A stretch of DNA of 64,000 nucleotides from an uncultured virus (IMG/VR IMGVR_UViG_2875733747_000004) (IMGVR_UViG_2875733747_000004); one strand, 5' to 3'; counted from the stretch's first letter, positions 5,177-25,547 are shown. The notes: generated by a model from the sequence alone, not told the origin. Program-made: numbers and translations.

Positions 5177-6631
5177 CTAAATCGTGCTAAACTTACCAAA
5201 ACTACTTATTCTATTACCTGCCTTGTCTACCTCTCCTGTCGCTATATAACGACGTTGTCCACTATTAGCAATATAAGTAATCCATCTATAGCCATTGATG
5301 CAATATGCGCCGTCATATTTAATTGTTGCGTTATTAGGTAATACACCTGTAATTCTTGAATTAGTTGAATAGCCGTCCCTTACGTTATTACCTTTAACAT
5401 TGGCAACTGTGTAATAACCAGTCTCTTTTTTATACGGTACATTGTTTTTATCAAGTGTATAACCTGCTGGCACTGGTGGATTTTTTTGGTTTTTAGCTGA
5501 TGTTTTAACATTACCAGCTACCAAACCACCTATAGGCTTACCATGAATTGCACCGGCTATTAATTTAGAATACAAGTCATAGTTTTTCTTAATCCAATCC
5601 ATATCATTTTTATTAGTAATAAAACCTAATTCAGATAAACGATAGTTTATATTTATTTCTGCTGATACATTAACGTTTAGTAAATCATTACGAGGTGTTA
5701 CACCTCTTATTTGTCCTAAGTTATTTTTAATAACATCTTGTATACTTTTATCAATAGTATCTGCATTGAATTGACTTGAAATAATAACATGCCCACCACT
5801 TGCACTTTCTCCTGCTGCGTCTAAATGAATCTCTAGAACAATGTCATACCCCTGTGATTTAACCCAATATAAGCCATAATCTTTATTATTTCCTACATTA
5901 ACACCGTAAGCAGTATCTTGATACATATCTTGTGATTGACTTGAGCCACCATATAATGCAACTTCGTGACCTGCATGTCTTAAATACTTAGCGATATTTG
6001 GTGTTATATATTTACGGATAAAATCACGTTCATTTGTTCCGTTTCCGACTGCTCCAGGATCGTTATAACCATGACCGGCTACAAGCATAATTTTTTTAGG
6101 TTTAATTACTGCTTGCTTTTTGGCAGTTGCTTGCTTAATAACGCTTTTAGCTTTATCTCCAACACTTACTTTATCTGGGAAATTTAATCTAATAAAATAC
6201 ATTGGGTCATCGTAATAATGAACATGTCTTGTAACGGTTTCGGGACCCCAACCAGGTTGCGCAACGCCATTTGTCCAACCTTTACCATTCCAATTTTGGC
6301 CAAACGATGTGAAAGTGTTTAGATTAGCGCTCTCAACAATTTCAACATGTCCAGCTCCGCCACCATACTTTGACGGGAAAACGACAATGTCCAACTTTTG
6401 CGGTAAAAAGCTATCATAGTTTTTAATTATTTGCCCGTATTTTTCAATCCTTGCTTTATTATCAAATGGAATATTATAAGCGTATAAACCTTGTAACCTT
6501 TCGCCTGTTGCTATCATAAAAAACATATTTGCGTAATCGTAACACTGAAATCCATAAAACAAATCAGGATTGAACTGCTTCCCTAATGAATTATCAAACC
6601 ATTTTTCTGCTTGGTTTTTTGTTATCAACAT
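5177..6631 (-). CDS. Endolysin (CHAP + amidase_3 + SH3b)
   Basis: QCYDY/GHV CHAP motifs, AGHG...EIHLD amidase motifs, C-terminal SH3b. Confidence 0.95.
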   Translation of the reverse strand: MLITKNQAEKWFDNSLGKQFNPDLFYGFQCYDYANMFFMIATGERLQGLYAYNIPFDNKARIEKYGQIIKNYDSFLPQKLDIVVFPSKYGGGAGHVEIVESANLNTFTSFGQNWNGKGWTNGVAQPGWGPETVTRHVHYYDDPMYFIRLNFPDKVSVGDKAKSVIKQATAKKQAVIKPKKIMLVAGHGYNDPGAVGNGTNERDFIRKYITPNIAKYLRHAGHEVALYGGSSQSQDMYQDTAYGVNVGNNKDYGLYWVKSQGYDIVLEIHLDAAGESASGGHVIISSQFNADTIDKSIQDVIKNNLGQIRGVTPRNDLLNVNVSAEININYRLSELGFITNKNDMDWIKKNYDLYSKLIAGAIHGKPIGGLVAGNVKTSAKNQKNPPVPAGYTLDKNNVPYKKETGYYTVANVKGNNVRDGYSTNSRITGVLPNNATIKYDGAYCINGYRWITYIANSGQRRYIATGEVDKAGNRISSFGKFSTI

Positions 6632-7589: not shown

Positions 7590-7971
7590 TTTCAGTCTCT
7601 CCTTTAACCTCTTCTAATTTTTTATTAAGTGTCACAAGTTGTTTTGCCATTAGTGCATTTTGCTTATTAACTTGCATCGATAACTTTGTACTTTGAACAA
7701 CTTGTTTCTGCATACTAGCAACCATTTTTCGTAAGATGTCATCAGAAGCGACTGTGTTTTGTTCTTCACTGTCAATCTGTTGATGCAAGTCATCTTTTTC
7801 TTCTGAATAATCTTCGTTAAAAACTATTTCCCCATTTGAATATTTAAAGGCTTTAGGTCTAAAAACTTGAGAGAAATTTTCTGGTAAATTTTCAATATCA
7901 ATACCTTCTTCAAAGCCACCAATGATAGCGTATGAAATTATCTCATTACGCTTGTTAACTAATATTTGCAT
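7582..7971 (-). CDS. DUF2977-like tail-region protein
   Basis: ORF track; conserved staphylococcal phage gene. Confidence 0.75.
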   Translation of the reverse strand: MQILVNKRNEIISYAIIGGFEEGIDIENLPENFSQVFRPKAFKYSNGEIVFNEDYSEEKDDLHQQIDSEEQNTVASDDILRKMVASMQKQVVQSTKLSMQVNKQNALMAKQLVTLNKKLEEVKGETENA

Positions 7972-20282: not shown

Positions 20283-20441
20283 CTAGCTTCCAAAAAGTTT
20301 TCTTAAATCCGTACCTGTAATGACTTTTTGTTCACTTTGTTTTTCTTCAGTCTCTTCTTTATTCTCTTCATTAAGTATTTCTAAAAGTTTTACATACGGC
20401 TGTTTTCTGACTTCAGTTAATGTCCACCCATACTGCTCCAT
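20283..20441 (-). CDS. Tail assembly chaperone second frame (gpT-like, reached by -1 frameshift)
   Basis: Open in the -1 frame from GGGAAAG at 20504-20510 through MEQYGWTL... to stop. Confidence 0.75.
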   Translation of the reverse strand: MEQYGWTLTEVRKQPYVKLLEILNEENKEETEEKQSEQKVITGTDLRKLFGS

Positions 20442-20482
20442 ACAGAAACGTTGTATTTTCTTAATGTTCGATAAAATGTCTT

Positions 20483-20833
20483 TTATTGAGATTGTTCTTC
20501 TGTCTTTCCCATCTCTTCTGGTTCAGTTTCTGAATCTTCTTCATCTTCACCATTGATTTCTCGAAATATATCTTGTAAGGCTTTTGTATAAGTTTTAGTA
20601 CTCATCTTGTTCAGAACATCTTCTTCAGTCAATCCTTCATCTTTAAATAAATCTACTAATAACTGTCGCTCTTTTTGTCTCATTTTTGTTGCGTTAGGTG
20701 CTTCTTTTTTATTCTCTTGATTTACTAATTCTAAATACTCATAGCATTTTTCTGCTTCGCCCATTGTTACATCTTCTTTTGTATAGCTCTCTGTTTTTCC
20801 TGTTTTACGATCTTTAATTTCAAATTTAATCAT
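20483..20833 (-). CDS. Tail assembly chaperone (gpG-like)
   Basis: Position between tail tube genes and TMP; slippery G GGA AAG near the 3' end. Confidence 0.85.
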   Translation of the reverse strand: MIKFEIKDRKTGKTESYTKEDVTMGEAEKCYEYLELVNQENKKEAPNATKMRQKERQLLVDLFKDEGLTEEDVLNKMSTKTYTKALQDIFREINGEDEEDSETEPEEMGKTEEQSQ

Positions 20834-20890: not shown

Positions 20891-21346
20891 CTATCCGTTT
20901 GTTACTGTCACTGAAATTTGTCCTGACTTATCGCTTCCATCAGTAGACGTAGCAGTGATTACTGAAGTACCTTCAGCTACACCGTGAATTGCTCCTGTAT
21001 TTTCATCTACAGTAACAAATTCTGGATGTTCACTTGTATATTTCAATATTTTATTCGTTGCTGTGCTTGGTGCAATGTTTGGCTCAACATTGTCATCGGT
21101 ATTTACCATAATTGATTTAGTTTCTGGTGTAAATGATACGCCTGAGACTAGAATTGGATTGGTTTTGAATTGAGGTACATCAACTTTACTAGATTCTTTA
21201 CCATTTTCTTCCCATGCCACTTGGTAAGTACCTTTTGGATAAGTTGTATCCGCTTCTAAATTAGATAAAGTTACTGACACTTTGCCTTCACCTTGTTCAG
21301 AAGCTACGACGTCGTCTCCTTTATAAACCTTTAAAGTTTTAGTCAT
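20891..21346 (-). CDS. Ig-like virion accessory protein (N-terminally incomplete FN3-like domain + Big_2 domain)
   Basis: VTLSNLEADTTY..YQVAW..GKES (FN3 E/F/G strands); ATNK..YTS..VTVDENTG..GTSVITAT (Big_2). Confidence 0.8.
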   Translation of the reverse strand: MTKTLKVYKGDDVVASEQGEGKVSVTLSNLEADTTYPKGTYQVAWEENGKESSKVDVPQFKTNPILVSGVSFTPETKSIMVNTDDNVEPNIAPSTATNKILKYTSEHPEFVTVDENTGAIHGVAEGTSVITATSTDGSDKSGQISVTVTNG

Positions 21347-21437
21347 AAATTATTCTCCTTTGATTTATTTTGAAAGCCCCTATTCTGCTGAAACTGTTGC
21401 AGATTTTGAATTAACTGCTACTTCAACATTTTGGGGA

Positions 21438-22079
21438 TTAGCTGGGTAACGAACCTGCAGAATCCTCTGAATGATCTTCACTGTCCGTGTATCCAACGAA
21501 TACTTTTTTGAAGAATTCTGCTTCTCCTTCTTTACCTTCATGATAACCGTATACAATACCTTGTGACGTTCCATCAACATCAACTTTTCTATTCATCCAG
21601 TCACCTGTTAATTTTGTAGGTTCTGGGGCTTCTGCTTTTTCACCTCGTGTTTTAAATTCAATTGAATCTAAACTAAAAGTACCTTTAAGTAAGGCTACAT
21701 ATACCGGCTGACCTGTTAAACCATCTTCCGATTCGCCAATTACTGTTACATACGGTGCTCTTGTATTCTCTCCTACCCAAGATGTACCATTTTTATCTTT
21801 AGTACGTCCAATAACTGTGTTTAAATCATCACTTGGAATATTGAAAATACTCATGTCAGACTTAACTTCATTAGTACCTTGTTTTTTCATCCATACACGT
21901 TTGTTAGATGCAAACATATCTACTAAATCTGGTGCTAAACCTGTGATATTTAGGTCAACTGTACCACCTTTTTCATCTTCCCATGTCATGCGTTTAACTA
22001 CTTTTGTTGCTTCTGGGTTAAAAACTCCAACGTATAATCTTTTAAAACCTACTTTATAAGAACCTTGTCCTTCTGCCAT
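21438..22079 (-). CDS. Major tail protein; probable +1 frameshift extension to 21380
   Basis: phi13-family tail tube protein; ends TTA CCC AGC TAA. Confidence 0.92.
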   Translation of the reverse strand: MAEGQGSYKVGFKRLYVGVFNPEATKVVKRMTWEDEKGGTVDLNITGLAPDLVDMFASNKRVWMKKQGTNEVKSDMSIFNIPSDDLNTVIGRTKDKNGTSWVGENTRAPYVTVIGESEDGLTGQPVYVALLKGTFSLDSIEFKTRGEKAEAPEPTKLTGDWMNRKVDVDGTSQGIVYGYHEGKEGEAEFFKKVFVGYTDSEDHSEDSAGSLPS

Positions 22080-22113
22080 TGCTTATTTCCTCCTTAAAAA
22101 TTAAAAAGCACAC

Positions 22114-22509
22114 CTATTCGATGCGCTGATTTTTATAATATATATTTTTGGGTATGCCTTGATATCGTCTCGACATCACATAACGTTTAGTTTCTTCAAA
22201 ATAAGCATCTAACTGACTAGATGCTTGAATTAAATTTTGTTGATATAACAGGTATCTTATTCGTTTTGTTATATCAATTGTTTTCTGATTATTTGAAGAT
22301 TCTACATCTATTTGAATTAAGTATTCTTCACTGAGATATTTATCAGACATAAAGTCTGAAGGCAAATCATAAACAGGTGTAATAACAACAAAGGGTTTGG
22401 AAGTTTCAGCGTTTTCAGTGACTTTGTAATAGTATATTCTAGAATTTATATGTGTTTTGAGCTCTGCATCAGATAATAAAATTCCTTTTATGGTGTTTAA
22501 TATATTCAT
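22114..22509 (-). CDS. Tail terminator (DUF3168-like)
   Basis: Position; PFVV and QIDV motifs. Confidence 0.8.
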   Translation of the reverse strand: MNILNTIKGILLSDAELKTHINSRIYYYKVTENAETSKPFVVITPVYDLPSDFMSDKYLSEEYLIQIDVESSNNQKTIDITKRIRYLLYQQNLIQASSQLDAYFEETKRYVMSRRYQGIPKNIYYKNQRIE

Positions 22510-22911
22510 TTATCTGGCCAACTCCTTTTTTATAATTTCTCTATACTTACGTTCGCTAGCAGCTAATGTTTTTGCAATAACTCCAAAACCTCTTGGTGTA
22601 TATTTTTTTCCATCTCTTGTATAACCATGTTCATTCAAGTGAATAATGTTTTTGCGATTCATAGGACCTACCCATTCAATTAAAACAGCCCTTTCTTGAC
22701 TACCAACTTTTGTATAAGGCTTAGATTTAGTCATTTCTTCTATACTGGCACCCGTATCTTTAAAGCTCTCGAACTCTTTCTTTAAAGCCTTTATAAAAAA
22801 TTCAGATGCTTCATTTAAAGCTTTATCACTCTTAGCCTGCATTGCTTGTTTACCGTATACCGATTCTAATTTATTCAACACTTCAGGTATCCCTTTAATT
22901 TCTACACTCAT
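22510..22911 (-). CDS. HK97 gp10-like tail completion protein
   Basis: DTG and HLNEHG motifs; position. Confidence 0.8.
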   Translation of the reverse strand: MSVEIKGIPEVLNKLESVYGKQAMQAKSDKALNEASEFFIKALKKEFESFKDTGASIEEMTKSKPYTKVGSQERAVLIEWVGPMNRKNIIHLNEHGYTRDGKKYTPRGFGVIAKTLAASERKYREIIKKELAR

Positions 22912-23240
22912 TTTTCTGATAAAACCACTGTATTATAGCCAATATCTGGTGTATCAATTCTTATTTCTACAATGTTGAATAATTTATCGGAATATAATGC
23001 ACTGTCAATTTTAACTAAGTGATTTGTTTGTGGTAGATATTCAGTTTTAGAAGACCTGACAATTATGGTTAATCCTGATTTTGATTCAGTCGCTTTTAAA
23101 ATTTCTCTATCTTTCATAGAAGGATTATAAATTTTACAAAAGCAACTATACAATTTCATTTTTTCCTCTTCATCTGGATATGGTCCTTTGTTTATATATT
23201 GAAAAAAATACGCGCGATCTTTAAATTCATTAAATTCCAT
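22908..23240 (-). CDS. Head-tail adaptor/closure protein
   Basis: Position in the neck module. Confidence 0.75.
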   Translation of the reverse strand: MEFNEFKDRAYFFQYINKGPYPDEEEKMKLYSCFCKIYNPSMKDREILKATESKSGLTIIVRSSKTEYLPQTNHLVKIDSALYSDKLFNIVEIRIDTPDIGYNTVVLSEK

Positions 23241-23251
23241 TTAAAAATCAC

Positions 23252-23530
23252 CTACCACTTTTTTAATTTCAAAATCATTTTTTGCAATCCTTTTTCATTA
23301 AACACCTTGCTTCTAGATTGGTCATTTGAGTATCCACGACTTTCATAATCTCTTGCAATGATATATTTAATCGCTGTACAAAAAAGCGGGTATTCCAAGT
23401 CATCTTTGTCATAATCTGGAACCCCACTTAATAGTAATTCAGACTTAGCCGATTGAATGAGACCTTCAATTAAATCATTTTCGAAATTATAGTCAATTCT
23501 CAACCACAATTTAATTTCTTCTAAACTCAT
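23252..23530 (-). CDS. Head-tail connector (gp6/gp15-like)
   Basis: LEEIKLWLRID...YESR motif. Confidence 0.85.
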   Translation of the reverse strand: MSLEEIKLWLRIDYNFENDLIEGLIQSAKSELLLSGVPDYDKDDLEYPLFCTAIKYIIARDYESRGYSNDQSRSKVFNEKGLQKMILKLKKW

Positions 23531-23598
23531 TTCATCACCCCTATTCGGCTGATATTACAGCTGATTTAGCCTTAGCTGTTACATTAACCTTTTGGGGC

Positions 23599-24762
23599 TT
23601 AGCTGGGTAATGGACCTGTATTTTCTTTTGCTTTTGCAATTCTGAATGCACTGTCTAATGTACGTTGCTGATCATACCATGCTGTTAATACAAACAAATA
23701 TTCGCCTTTTTTAACATCTTTATCAGTGTCATAAGTTGTTCCATCATAGTTAATTCCAAAATAATTGAAATCTCCCACAATAGGTTTAACTGCTGCATCT
23801 GTAAATACTACTGGTTTGCCAAATACTTTTTCTGCTGGTGTGTCAAAGAAATTTGTTGTTCCATTTGAAAGAACACTAATAATTTTGACATAATCTGCAT
23901 ATCGCATATAAATTGTTGCGTTATCACGATAATCTTCATGTAAATCTGCTAAAGCGTTAATAATAGCATCATACATGTCTGCTCCCTCAACTTCTTTAAC
24001 AGATCCATTATAAAATGACATGTGTTCTAATCCAGATTTAGGACTTACTGCTAAGGCATCTTTACGCTCTTTAGCTGCTAATCCTGATTGTAGTGCGTTT
24101 TCAACCCAGTTTACTAAATCTACATCTGATCCATGAATTACAGTATCTGAAATTGCAGCAAATACTTTGAATTTATTAGTAGTGAACTTGACTGTATCAC
24201 CTTTTGCTTTTAATTCTTTTGCTGTTTCTACGTCTGTAATGAAATCATCATCGTCTAAAGTGTATGAAACTCTTGGAATCTCTAAACCTTTAATGTTAGT
24301 TAGACGAGCTTTTTCACGTAATTGGTTTTTAGCAAATGGTTCTGAAACAATTTCTTTAGAAAGTGTTTTTGGTAAGAGCTTATCTCCACCTGAATCATTT
24401 CCTGTTGGTAAAGCGTGTAATAAACGTTGTGCCTCCATTGAAGGTTTTTCAAATTCATTTGGTAAAATCGCGTGACGATAAAACTCTGCCTTAGCTTTAA
24501 CCATCTTCTCATTATCACTTAAAGATTGATAAGCTTCTCCTTTATCTTTAACTTTCGCTTTTTCTTTTTCTTCAATGTCTTGCACTTGTCTTTCAACAAT
24601 GTTAAATCTTTGTTGTAAACCTGCTTTTTCTGTTTCTAGTTGTTTGATGTCTTCCATATCAATATTTGGATCTGTTGCTTTCTGACTCAATTCATCATTT
24701 TTATTTTTTAATTGTTGTCCAATCATACCTAAGGATTGTTTTAATTCATATAATGTCGGCAT
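23599..24762 (-). CDS. Major capsid protein (HK97 fold with delta domain); probable +1 extension to 23541
   Basis: Start MPTLYEL with GGAGG RBS; coiled-coil delta domain; ends TTA CCC AGC TAA. Confidence 0.95.
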   Translation of the reverse strand: MPTLYELKQSLGMIGQQLKNKNDELSQKATDPNIDMEDIKQLETEKAGLQQRFNIVERQVQDIEEKEKAKVKDKGEAYQSLSDNEKMVKAKAEFYRHAILPNEFEKPSMEAQRLLHALPTGNDSGGDKLLPKTLSKEIVSEPFAKNQLREKARLTNIKGLEIPRVSYTLDDDDFITDVETAKELKAKGDTVKFTTNKFKVFAAISDTVIHGSDVDLVNWVENALQSGLAAKERKDALAVSPKSGLEHMSFYNGSVKEVEGADMYDAIINALADLHEDYRDNATIYMRYADYVKIISVLSNGTTNFFDTPAEKVFGKPVVFTDAAVKPIVGDFNYFGINYDGTTYDTDKDVKKGEYLFVLTAWYDQQRTLDSAFRIAKAKENTGPLPS

Positions 24763-24773
24763 TTCATTTCCTC

Positions 24774-25547
24774 CTAATAATTCATTGTCATTTTTAAAAT
24801 TTCGCATTCGCGTTTAATTTTTTCTCTTTTTTCTTTTTCTTCTAGTGACATACTTTCTTTAGGTGTTTCAACCAATTCAGATGTATCTACATCATCAATT
24901 TTAGTGATTTTGTCTACATCTTTCTTTAAATCTTCTGGGACGTTCTCGAAACGCTTATATTGCTCTTTAGAGATACTAGCAGCTATTTCATTAGCTCCTA
25001 AAATTTCATCTATCAAGCCGAAAGACAAGGCTTCTTCTGCAGTAAGCCAAGTTTCTGCATCTAACATCTGTTTTAAGTGTTCTTGATCTAAATCTTTTGC
25101 TTTATCTAAATAAGCTGAATTACTAACAGCATCTGTTTTTTCAAGTAAATCCGCTGTCTTTCTTAATTCTTCTGCATTACCTACAGTCATAACCCATGAA
25201 TTATGAATCATTAAAAAACTATTTTTGTGCATAAAAATAGTGTCACCACTCATAGCGATAACACTAGCAATTGATGCCGCTAAGGCATCGACATAGATAT
25301 TAATTTTTGCAGGATGCATTTTTAGCATATTGTATATTGCATGTCCTTCAAATACACTGCCTCCAGATGAATTTATATGAACATCTATTTCACTGATGTC
25401 TCCTAGTTCATCTAGTTTATTTTTGAAATCTGTAGCAGTTACATCACTTTCAAACCATTTATCACTTACAATATCACCATAAATGAATATTTCACCTTTA
25501 CTTTTTGATTTTCTTTTCATTTGAAAATACTTAGCTTTCATTGACAT
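24774..25547 (-). CDS. ClpP-like prohead protease
   Basis: INSSGG, AASIAS, MIHN and ETWL motifs. Confidence 0.93.
   Translation of the reverse strand: MSMKAKYFQMKRKSKSKGEIFIYGDIVSDKWFESDVTATDFKNKLDELGDISEIDVHINSSGGSVFEGHAIYNMLKMHPAKINIYVDALAASIASVIAMSGDTIFMHKNSFLMIHNSWVMTVGNAEELRKTADLLEKTDAVSNSAYLDKAKDLDQEHLKQMLDAETWLTAEEALSFGLIDEILGANEIAASISKEQYKRFENVPEDLKKDVDKITKIDDVDTSELVETPKESMSLEEKEKREKIKRECEILKMTMNY

Follow-up and report, generated by a model that had tools for sequence, protein, structure and literature searches.

Phages that extend their structural proteins by programmed frameshifting provide the closest described systems to the locus analyzed here. Listeria phage PSA carries programmed +1 frameshifts in both its capsid (cps) and tail (tsh) genes (Zimmer 2003 and Dorscht 2009, summarized in PMC5009743), and in Bacillus phage SPP1 a frameshift product of the tail tube gene, gp17.1*, adds an FN3 domain to the tail tube at a 3:1 ratio and is dispensable (Auzat 2008, summarized in PMC8718954). 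A third case is ORF10 of phiEf11, which gives two head-protein bands and for which a −1 frameshift, a 21-residue extension, and a stem-loop were proposed (PMC5221750). Here we analyze a stretch of 64,000 nucleotides (the window) recorded as an uncultured virus (IMG/VR IMGVR_UViG_2875733747_000004), in which the capsid gene gp33, the tail tube gene gp37, and the accessory gene gp38 appear to form a related but divided system. We consider it likely, at a probability of about 0.72, that +1 frameshifting adds a short peptide tag to some copies of the capsid and tail tube proteins and that the gp38 protein docks on that tag on both head and tail.

The window is the phi12 prophage: a 4-kb query taken from it was 100% identical to Staphylococcus phage phi12 and matched 107 phage records, 102 of which covered at least 80% of the query. 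The three genes lie on the minus strand. gp33 (23599..24807; 402 aa; Pfam PF05065, E 5e-16) is identical to its phi12 counterpart and encodes the major capsid protein, an HK97-type capsid protein that has its delta domain at the N terminus, and gp37 (21438..22079; 213 aa; PF04630, E 9e-14) encodes the major tail (tube) protein. Both genes terminate TTA-CCC-AGC-TAA: the 3′ end of gp33 is CAGGTCCATTACCCAGCTAAGCCCCAAAA, with the motif TTACCCAGCTAA at 23599-23610, and that of gp37 is CAGGTTCGTTACCCAGCTAATCCCCAAAA at 21438-21449. The CCC is the only one in each gene and precedes the final serine codon (codon 401 of 402 in gp33, 23605..23607; codon 212 of 213 in gp37, 21444..21446; both minus strand). 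From each CCC, the +1 frame runs for 21 codons plus a TAG stop, 66 nt in total, to 23541 behind the capsid gene and to 21380 behind the tail gene. We define these open reading frames (ORFs) as the capsid tag (23541..23606) and the tail tag (21380..21445), again on the minus strand. The tag ORFs share the ending GAATAGGGG, and the encoded peptides, PAKPQKVNVTAKAKSAVISAE for the capsid and PANPQNVEVAVNSKSATVSAE for the tail, are identical at 12 of 21 residues. On a position matrix (PSSM) built from the tags collected in this study, the capsid tag scored 56.0 and the tail tag 71.8. Moreover, the 21-nt core TTACCCAGCTAANCCCCAAAA occurred exactly twice in the 64 kb, even with three mismatches allowed, where 0.01 matches were expected, and two matches were found in none of 100 shuffles. 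An earlier reading made from the sequence alone (the sequence-only reading) had pointed out the identical gene ends, the extensions of equal 66-nt length, and their common ending, all of which were borne out when the minus strand was read again.

The sequence around the shared CCC is compatible with slippage by the translating ribosome. CCC accounts for 6 to 8% of the proline codons in the window, and in both genes it is followed by A such that, as at PSA-type sites, the +1 codon CCN could re-pair with tRNA-Pro. Staphylococci have a single tRNA-Pro(UGG). Transcriptional slippage was rejected as a source of the shift because the site holds only the CCC run, and the CCCCAAAA run falls after the 0-frame stop.

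The next gene after the tail tag is gp38 (20891-21346, minus strand), the ATG of which lies 36 nt from the tail-tag TAG and in phase with the tag frame. Its product of 151 aa has two parts. Residues 1 to 65 (21152..21346) are predicted from modeling and from relatives to form a half-domain with FN3 strands C, C′, E, F, and G, here called the catcher, and residues 66 to 151 plus the stop codon (20891..21151) carry a Big_2 Ig-like domain, the putative cargo. The Big_2 assignment (PF02368) covered residues 67 to 140 at 37.6 bits against a cutoff of 22.8, in agreement with the earlier description of a 151-aa product with such a domain.

Each tag is encoded inside a predicted RNA hairpin, a feature that the sequence-only reading overlooked although its twin +1 extensions stood. 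The capsid hairpin (23538..23597, minus strand) has an outer stem of CCCC:GGGG, an internal loop, and a long inner stem, and the tail hairpin (21377..21436, minus strand) has the same architecture, with a minimum free energy (MFE) of −19.6 kcal/mol for a 94-nt stretch. The hairpin begins 7 nt 3′ of the slip codon, and the GGGG of the outer stem directly follows the TAG of the tag. The inner stem of 9 to 17 bp pairs codons 6 to 11 with codons 15 to 20 in a register that sets third codon positions opposite third positions. Covariation was scored in 38 diverse frameshift-tag sequences against 500 shuffles. Paired cells made up 86.1% of the total compared with 74.6% in the shuffles, none of which reached as high, and cells changed on both sides numbered 99 compared with 45.3 (0/500). 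Compensatory changes were found at 12 of 16 inner pairs, and when the 3′ partners were slid, only 37 to 50% paired. CCCC and TAGGGG were conserved at the nucleotide level with a sole exception, L015 5914-6007, where CCTAA and TTAGG stand in place of CCCC and GGGG as a compensatory swap of the outer stem. An Rfam search with the hairpin returned no family, and a match to a long noncoding RNA (E 0.97) was attributed to chance. We conclude that the covarying hairpin is a likely frameshift stimulator, comparable to a structure reported 3′ of the PSA capsid site (PMC5009743). The capsid-tag TAGGGG is also the ribosome-binding site (RBS) of a head-tail connector gene, the ATG of which lies 5 nt on (window 23530-23546), and in relatives most capsid tags are followed by the same arrangement; a catcher gene that stands behind a tail tag has an RBS of its own.

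The hairpin alone could account for the conserved length and sequence of the tags, and constraint on the peptide was examined separately. Entropy at the first, second, and third codon positions of the tag frame was 0.605, 0.535, and 1.231, respectively, over 64 contexts, such that variability at third positions was roughly double that at the first two. Tags also occur in frame, at the C terminus of the tail tube protein in phages of the 187/VL4 type and at the C termini of some catcher proteins. Ten true in-frame tags kept the motif and had neither CCCC, nor TAGGGG, nor a stable fold (MFE, −3.6 to −9.2; z, −1.05 to +1.28), and the 38 frameshift tags had a mean MFE of −23.0 and a mean z of −4.88; another two sequences filed as in-frame proved to be frameshift tags and were left out of the 10. 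The same peptide is also reached by other routes. In Enterococcus phage phiSHEF5 (L311 3860-4225 and 6235-6310), the capsid and tail genes end GCA-CCC-TAG and open twin +1 tags of 22 residues, next to a different, short hairpin of 6 to 7 bp. In phiEf11 (L312 4570-4700 and 6640-7190), the capsid protein would gain a 21-residue tag-like extension through the proposed A-rich −1 site, the tail tube protein ends in an in-frame tag, and a gp38 homologue is the next gene. Because of the codon periodicity, the in-frame tags that have no hairpin, and the alternative routes to the tag, we conclude that selection acts on the tag peptide separately from the RNA. The phiSHEF5 catcher is a half-domain of 73 residues with no cargo domain, and it therefore seems to be the split itself, rather than the cargo, that matters in that phage.

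To compare these predictions with virion proteins, published data were taken from the text and tables of papers and not from spectra. Six Triavirus phages share signals at 7,936, 11,645, 12,598, 15,871, 23,295, 25,208, and 30,373, of which the 23,295 signal was identified there as the tail protein and the 15,871 signal as the Ig-like protein (PMC5923470). The calculated mass of gp37 without Met is 23,294.7 Da (published, 23,293 to 23,298 Da), and that of gp38 without Met is 15,871.2 Da (published in virions, 15,871 to 15,875 Da). For the capsid protein, cleavage at R128/L129 was reported to yield 30,374 Da (PMC8569155), and the calculated mass of the mature form is 30,374.8 Da. The +1 product of gp37 has a calculated mass of 25,204.7 Da, and the unassigned Triavirus signal at 25,208 fits it within 3.5 Da; when ordinary ORFs of the window were considered with every start, none fell within 12 Da of 25,208. 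A −2 shift, made once the serine codon had been read, was rejected, as the extra serine (+87 Da) gives an estimated mass of about 25,292 Da and a poorer fit to 25,208. The 12,598 signal was set aside as independent support, as several ordinary ORFs also have masses within 12 Da. The +1 form of the mature capsid protein has a calculated mass of 32,310.1 Da, and the phi12 capsid protein was reported in two gel bands, of 29.5 and 32.6 kDa, neither of which contained N-terminal peptides (PMC8569155). The electrospray ionization data of the same study list 30,374 and 23,293 Da together with minor peaks that "could not be ascertained"; gp38 gave a prominent band and was named a minor tail protein, and the word "frameshift" is absent from the paper. 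We conclude that the presence of frameshifted tail protein in virions is supported by published masses and that frameshifted capsid protein is probably present as well, given a 32.6-kDa band and a calculated mass of 32,310 Da. The expectation of the sequence-only reading that extended products occur in virions thus agrees with the published masses within 3.5 Da for the tail and is compatible with them for the capsid. Moreover, because gp38 and the 25.2-kDa species have free masses in the published data, those masses argue that any link between tag and gp38 is noncovalent.

Residues 1 to 65 of gp38 had 79 relatives in a library of 1.84 billion proteins (E up to 0.001), and the domain mostly began at residues 1 to 5 of short proteins. 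A few large relatives contained intact tandem copies, with a two-strand segment directly before the part homologous to the catcher. When a profile of tag, spacer, and N-terminal domain was aligned to 26 such intact units, the match had a probability (Prob) of 98.6 to 98.7 over query positions 7 to 97, which include most of the tag. For structure prediction, the tag, the natural 12-codon spacer, and gp38 were given to AlphaFold2 as one chain with X at the three stops, and the alignment was supplemented with 15 rows from loci in which tag and gene are in phase. The model had a mean predicted local distance difference test (pLDDT) score of 92.8 and of 92 to 96 in the tag, the spacer was disordered, and the tag formed strands at residues 8 to 11 and 15 to 20. 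Model residues 1 to about 97 matched 1k85 (Z 10.2, 81 residues aligned, root mean square deviation 2.1), 2w1n (Z 10.4, 83 aligned), 7jgu (Z 10.0, 80 aligned), and 4n68 (Z 9.7, 86 aligned). As the 80 to 86 aligned residues exceed the 65 residues of the N-terminal domain, the tag contributes to the FN3 match. Model residues 98 to 184 matched Big_2 domains (7quz, Z 14.6) and the Ig-like domain of T5 pb6 (5ngj, Z 12.6). When gp38 was modeled alone, the E-strand segment that partners the tag was no longer a strand. In the model, tag and gp38 together form a seven-strand FN3 sandwich (A-B-E and C′-C-F-G), and the single-chain prediction accords with the earlier proposal that the tag and residues 1 to 65 complete one FN3 domain. 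An intact-repeat homologue scored 24.4 bits against Pfam fn3, for which the cutoff is 25, and we class the modeled tag plus catcher as an FN3-like fold and not as a member of PF00041.

Conservation was examined first from the side of the catcher gene, in DNA from 10 genome loci with the N-terminal domain, 80 IMG/VR sequences, and the window (91 sources in 33 cassette types). In 31 of the 33 types and 88 of the 91 sources, a CCC at most four codons from the 0-frame stop opened a +1 ORF of exactly 21 codons, which in those 31 types ended 11 to 34 nt upstream of the gp38-like gene. The exceptions among the types were one with a premature +1 stop and one with an extra small ORF between tag and gene. 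Slip contexts included ACA-CCC-TAA or TAG, TTA-CCC-AGC-TAA, TTA-CCC-TCG-TAA, and a few others; most relatives had CCC-TAA or CCC-TAG, and one locus had the stop three codons later. When the PSSM was used to scan 28 sources, 26 contained a second tag, which lay 2.1 to 2.5 kb from the first where the other major structural gene ends, and no match fell on the minus strand in any scanned source. Among 15 loci checked with Pfam, tagged capsid proteins were found in 14 (13 PF05065, 1 PF03864) and tagged tail tube proteins in 14 (13 PF04630, 1 PF06199). Tag hosts span at least three capsid and two tail tube families, and nearly always form a head and tail pair with one catcher gene, which is located after the tail gene in phi12 and, in phage 187, VL4, and others, after the capsid gene.

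The reciprocal scan of IMG/VR, from the side of the tag, used only the conserved outer-stem bases and gave more than 170 stretches, of which 77 loci were examined. The catcher half-domain was encoded in 75 of the 77 (hidden Markov model E up to 0.001), and the other two were a chance pattern match with no tag peptide and a truncated phi12-like remnant. The +1 frames are therefore conserved as the sequence-only reading supposed, with length and peptide both kept in distant relatives, and the co-occurrence of motif, extension, and accessory gene holds from the catcher side (88/91) and from the tag side (75/77). Individual loci depart from the pattern: an additional ORF of about 234 nt lies between tail tag and catcher gene in L133 and L142 (about 5767-6000), and in the staphylococcal prophage L007 (about 5905-5920) the capsid +1 frame stops after four codons while the in-frame tail tag is intact, such that its capsid tag appears decayed.

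The mechanism that we favor would begin with a fraction of ribosomes slipping +1 on the sole CCC of gp33 or gp37, where peptidyl-tRNA-Pro would re-pair from CCC to CCA and the hairpin 7 nt downstream would promote the slip. Slipped ribosomes would add 20 new residues and stop at the TAG inside the hairpin, and the added peptide would be the A-B β-hairpin of an FN3-like domain. gp38, which would supply strands C, C′, E, F, and G together with Big_2, would fold onto the tag noncovalently and complete the FN3 sandwich. One gene would in this way decorate both head and tail with a copy number set by frameshift efficiency, and the Big_2 cargo would probably serve as a weak surface adhesin. We infer slippage as the cause of the extensions, physical docking and its occurrence on the head, and the role that the decoration would play.

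Several observations weigh against this mechanism. The phi12 slip codon precedes a serine codon, AGC, and most relatives have a stop directly after CCC. The 25,208 signal was recorded in close relatives, phage 47 among them, rather than in phi12 itself, a 32.3-kDa species is absent from the shared Triavirus matrix-assisted laser desorption/ionization signals as given in the text and tables of PMC5923470, and the second capsid band was taken by its authors as a secondary cleavage (PMC8569155). A profile of the tag retrieved only three C-terminal cis tags among the 79 library proteins and no A-B segment of an intact repeat, and hhalign of the tag alone against intact repeats gave a Prob of 0.3, the tag being too short to score. 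As tag-only searches were not significant, the evidence for homology of the tag to strands A and B comes from the joint alignment and the fold model. No match to Pfam fn3 (PF00041) was found at E up to 10, either in tag plus gp38 or in gp38 residues 1 to 65. Finally, in the fold model the read-through spacer makes a covalent connection between tag and gp38, and gp38 modeled alone was also confident (pLDDT 95.8), such that AlphaFold2 does not show that the tag is necessary.

The confident model of gp38 alone bears on the strongest alternative, in which the peptide tails act by themselves, as clasps between subunits or as flexible surface tails, while the N-terminal domain of gp38 folds unaided and joins the tail by another surface. 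That alternative would also fit the published naming of gp38 as a minor tail protein, with the head unmentioned in the portions of PMC8569155 used here, and the phi12/SaPIbov5 procapsid maps (8.2 and 4.0 Å), for which the accessible text mentions no decoration. Tails that act alone would not, however, account for the near-constant company of tag and catcher (75 of 77 loci from the side of the tag, 88 of 91 sources from that of the catcher) or for a catcher gene that travels with the tag, behind the capsid or the tail gene depending on the phage. Nor would they explain why the strands absent from the modeled catcher are precisely the two that the tag would supply or why some catcher proteins carry a C-terminal tag of their own. 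We consider independent action of the tails improbable, at well below an even chance.

Somewhat less probable still is that the tags are relics of an SPP1-like extension of FN3 plus Big_2 that was split by a stop, an RBS, and a start, with the stubs kept by the hairpin alone and gp38 attached in some other way. Such an origin would fit the finding that, in phi12 and many relatives, the tag stops in the frame in which gp38 starts, with a single TAG between them in a few loci, and most of the tag sequence is indeed constrained by the hairpin. Relics should not, however, show the third-position variability that marks selection on the peptide, and in-frame tags are kept with no hairpin. Tags also end capsid genes that adjoin no catcher gene and stand on unrelated capsid and tail tube families. 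Because the association of tag and catcher is both tight and mobile, we conclude that relic stubs, like tails acting alone, are unlikely, and we prefer docking of gp38 on a frameshift tag.

A reading confined to RNA has little probability. It would hold that the hairpins are stabilizers or attenuators of mRNA behind the two most highly expressed genes and that the +1 frames are incidental, consistent with strong, conserved, and covarying structures in which CCCC and TAGGGG are fixed as nucleotides. Incidental frames would not be expected to show codon periodicity, to run for exactly 21 codons from a rare CCC at a gene end, to recur as a motif in frame or behind a −1 site with no such hairpin, or to match a virion mass within 3.5 Da. 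Last, fusion of tail protein, tag, and gp38 into one polypeptide by stop read-through or ribosome hopping was rejected as exceedingly improbable: the phi12 tag frame is in phase with gp38 across the 36 nt from TAG to ATG, but three stop codons intervene, the spacer varies (32, 33, or 34 nt in close relatives and 11 to 34 nt overall), gp38 has its own RBS and start and occurs as a free protein that, less Met, has a mass of 15,871 Da, and no gp38 gene stands behind the capsid tag.

Docking of gp38 on frameshift tags may be one instance of something broader, and we give even odds to a joint proposal that phages of Gram-positive cocci share a modular tag-and-catcher system based on a split FN3 domain. 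In that proposal, an A-B tag of 21 to 22 residues could be placed on any structural protein, either in frame or by a +1 or −1 frameshift that would set tag occupancy. The tag would recruit proteins that start with the five-strand half-domain and that continue as a bare cap, as one to three Big_2 domains, or as larger cargo, and catchers that are themselves tagged would chain head to tail into fibers. One RNA hairpin would both stimulate the slip and encode the β-hairpin, each arm coding for one strand.

Candidate members of such a system occur beyond the phi12 relatives. In phage 812 (Kayvirus), three consecutive genes (L144 2337-3746) form a possible chain from tag to catcher: Gp155 ends in an in-frame acidic tag, Gp156 combines a catcher half-domain, Big_2, and a C-terminal tag of its own, and Gp157 is a 75-residue catcher only. 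Tags in this myophage are in frame, whereas phi12 reaches them by +1 frameshift on the capsid and tail tube genes and inside an RNA hairpin. Abundant Kayvirus virion proteins of 23,069, 17,718, and 7,818 Da with consecutive accessions were reported (PMC5923470) and appear to be the Gp155 to Gp157 trio; the trio is assigned to no density in the accessible part of the phage 812 neck paper. Catchers with their own in-frame acidic C-terminal tag were also found at L015 6001-6270 and in L011, L133, L138, P0021, and P0022, and in one such unit of 89 residues the linker of about 4 residues is too short for folding back. The presence of tags on catchers suggests that these proteins chain head to tail. 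P0026 (744 aa), P0028, P0052, and P0062 have the split half-domain at residue 1 followed by intact tandem copies, and proteins of this type may be large cargo that docks on a tag.

If correct, docking on frameshift tags would explain the second phi12 capsid band and the unassigned 25.2-kDa Triavirus signal, and a tag reached through a −1 site may explain the two head-protein bands of phiEf11. It would constitute a new route of decoration, in which structural proteins gain a two-strand tag and one diffusible protein supplies the rest of the domain on head and tail alike, with dose set by frameshift efficiency and cargo freely exchangeable. A noncovalent peptide-domain pair present on many phages would be of interest to phage display and engineering. 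The dual coding would also be a compact overlap of RNA and protein information, as the hairpin pairs third with third codon positions while encoding a β-hairpin.

The surrounding genes complete the structural module. Four head-tail genes lie between gp33 and gp37, and tail chaperone genes and the tape-measure gene lie downstream of gp38, all on the minus strand. Between gp38 and the tape-measure gene, two small ORFs 41 nt apart (window 20283-20833) encode products of 116 aa (PF23857, tail chaperone) and 52 aa.

PSA is among the described systems closest to the locus. As proposed for phi12, the PSA capsid and tail genes have twin +1 shifts on CCC, a proline codon, at their 3′ ends, with a 3′ RNA structure or stop codon as stimulator and a low-GC host in which CCC is rare; the ACA_CCC of its cps site is the ACA-CCC context of most phi12 relatives (PMC5009743). 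As the review PMC5009743 presents such cases, however, the extensions provide C-terminal Ig-like domains, whereas the phi12 extensions are 21 residues long and amount to two strands. SPP1 resembles phi12 in FN3-type decoration of the tail tube at an occupancy set by frameshifting, for which weak binding to cell wall carbohydrate was proposed, but its FN3 is complete, in cis, and confined to the tail (PMC8718954). In phi12, by contrast, the FN3 domain would be split over two products and the tag is also on the head. The phi12 tags consequently fall outside the cis-type class (SPP1 gp17.1*, PSA, T3, and A2), in which the extension holds a complete domain. The phiEf11 shift differs in being −1 on an A run, and in the portions of PMC5221750 available the extension is not linked to the neighboring Ig-like gene or to a split domain.

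Among decoration proteins and split domains, the likenesses are partial. T4 Hoc and T5 pb6, like gp38, display Ig-like cargo on the virion surface. Hoc binds through its own folded capsid-binding domain, whereas binding of gp38 would complete a half-domain with a peptide from the structural protein. In SpyTag/SpyCatcher and in donor-strand complementation, a short peptide is separated from a β-sandwich that is incomplete without it, and together they restore a single domain. The tag/catcher likeness drawn by the sequence-only reading holds in that a part of the fold is missing, here an A-B hairpin of two strands rather than one, but a covalent bond probably does not carry over: SpyCatcher forms an isopeptide bond, and the free masses argue against a covalent link in the phi12 pair. 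In chaperone-usher pilins, the fold lacks one G strand and requires a chaperone, whereas the phi12 catcher lacks the A-B hairpin and no chaperone or usher genes were found in the structural module examined, such that the comparison is an analogy only. We conclude that neither SpyTag/SpyCatcher nor the pilins are homologous to the phi12 pair. Among the papers searched, none reported a frameshift in phi12-like phages or a domain of which one part is a frameshift tag and the other belongs to a separate decoration protein. Twin CCC +1 frameshifts are already known from PSA and a frameshift-added FN3 on the tail tube from SPP1; what phi12 would add to them is a covarying hairpin in which the frameshift tags are themselves encoded and the docking of a separate protein through a split domain.

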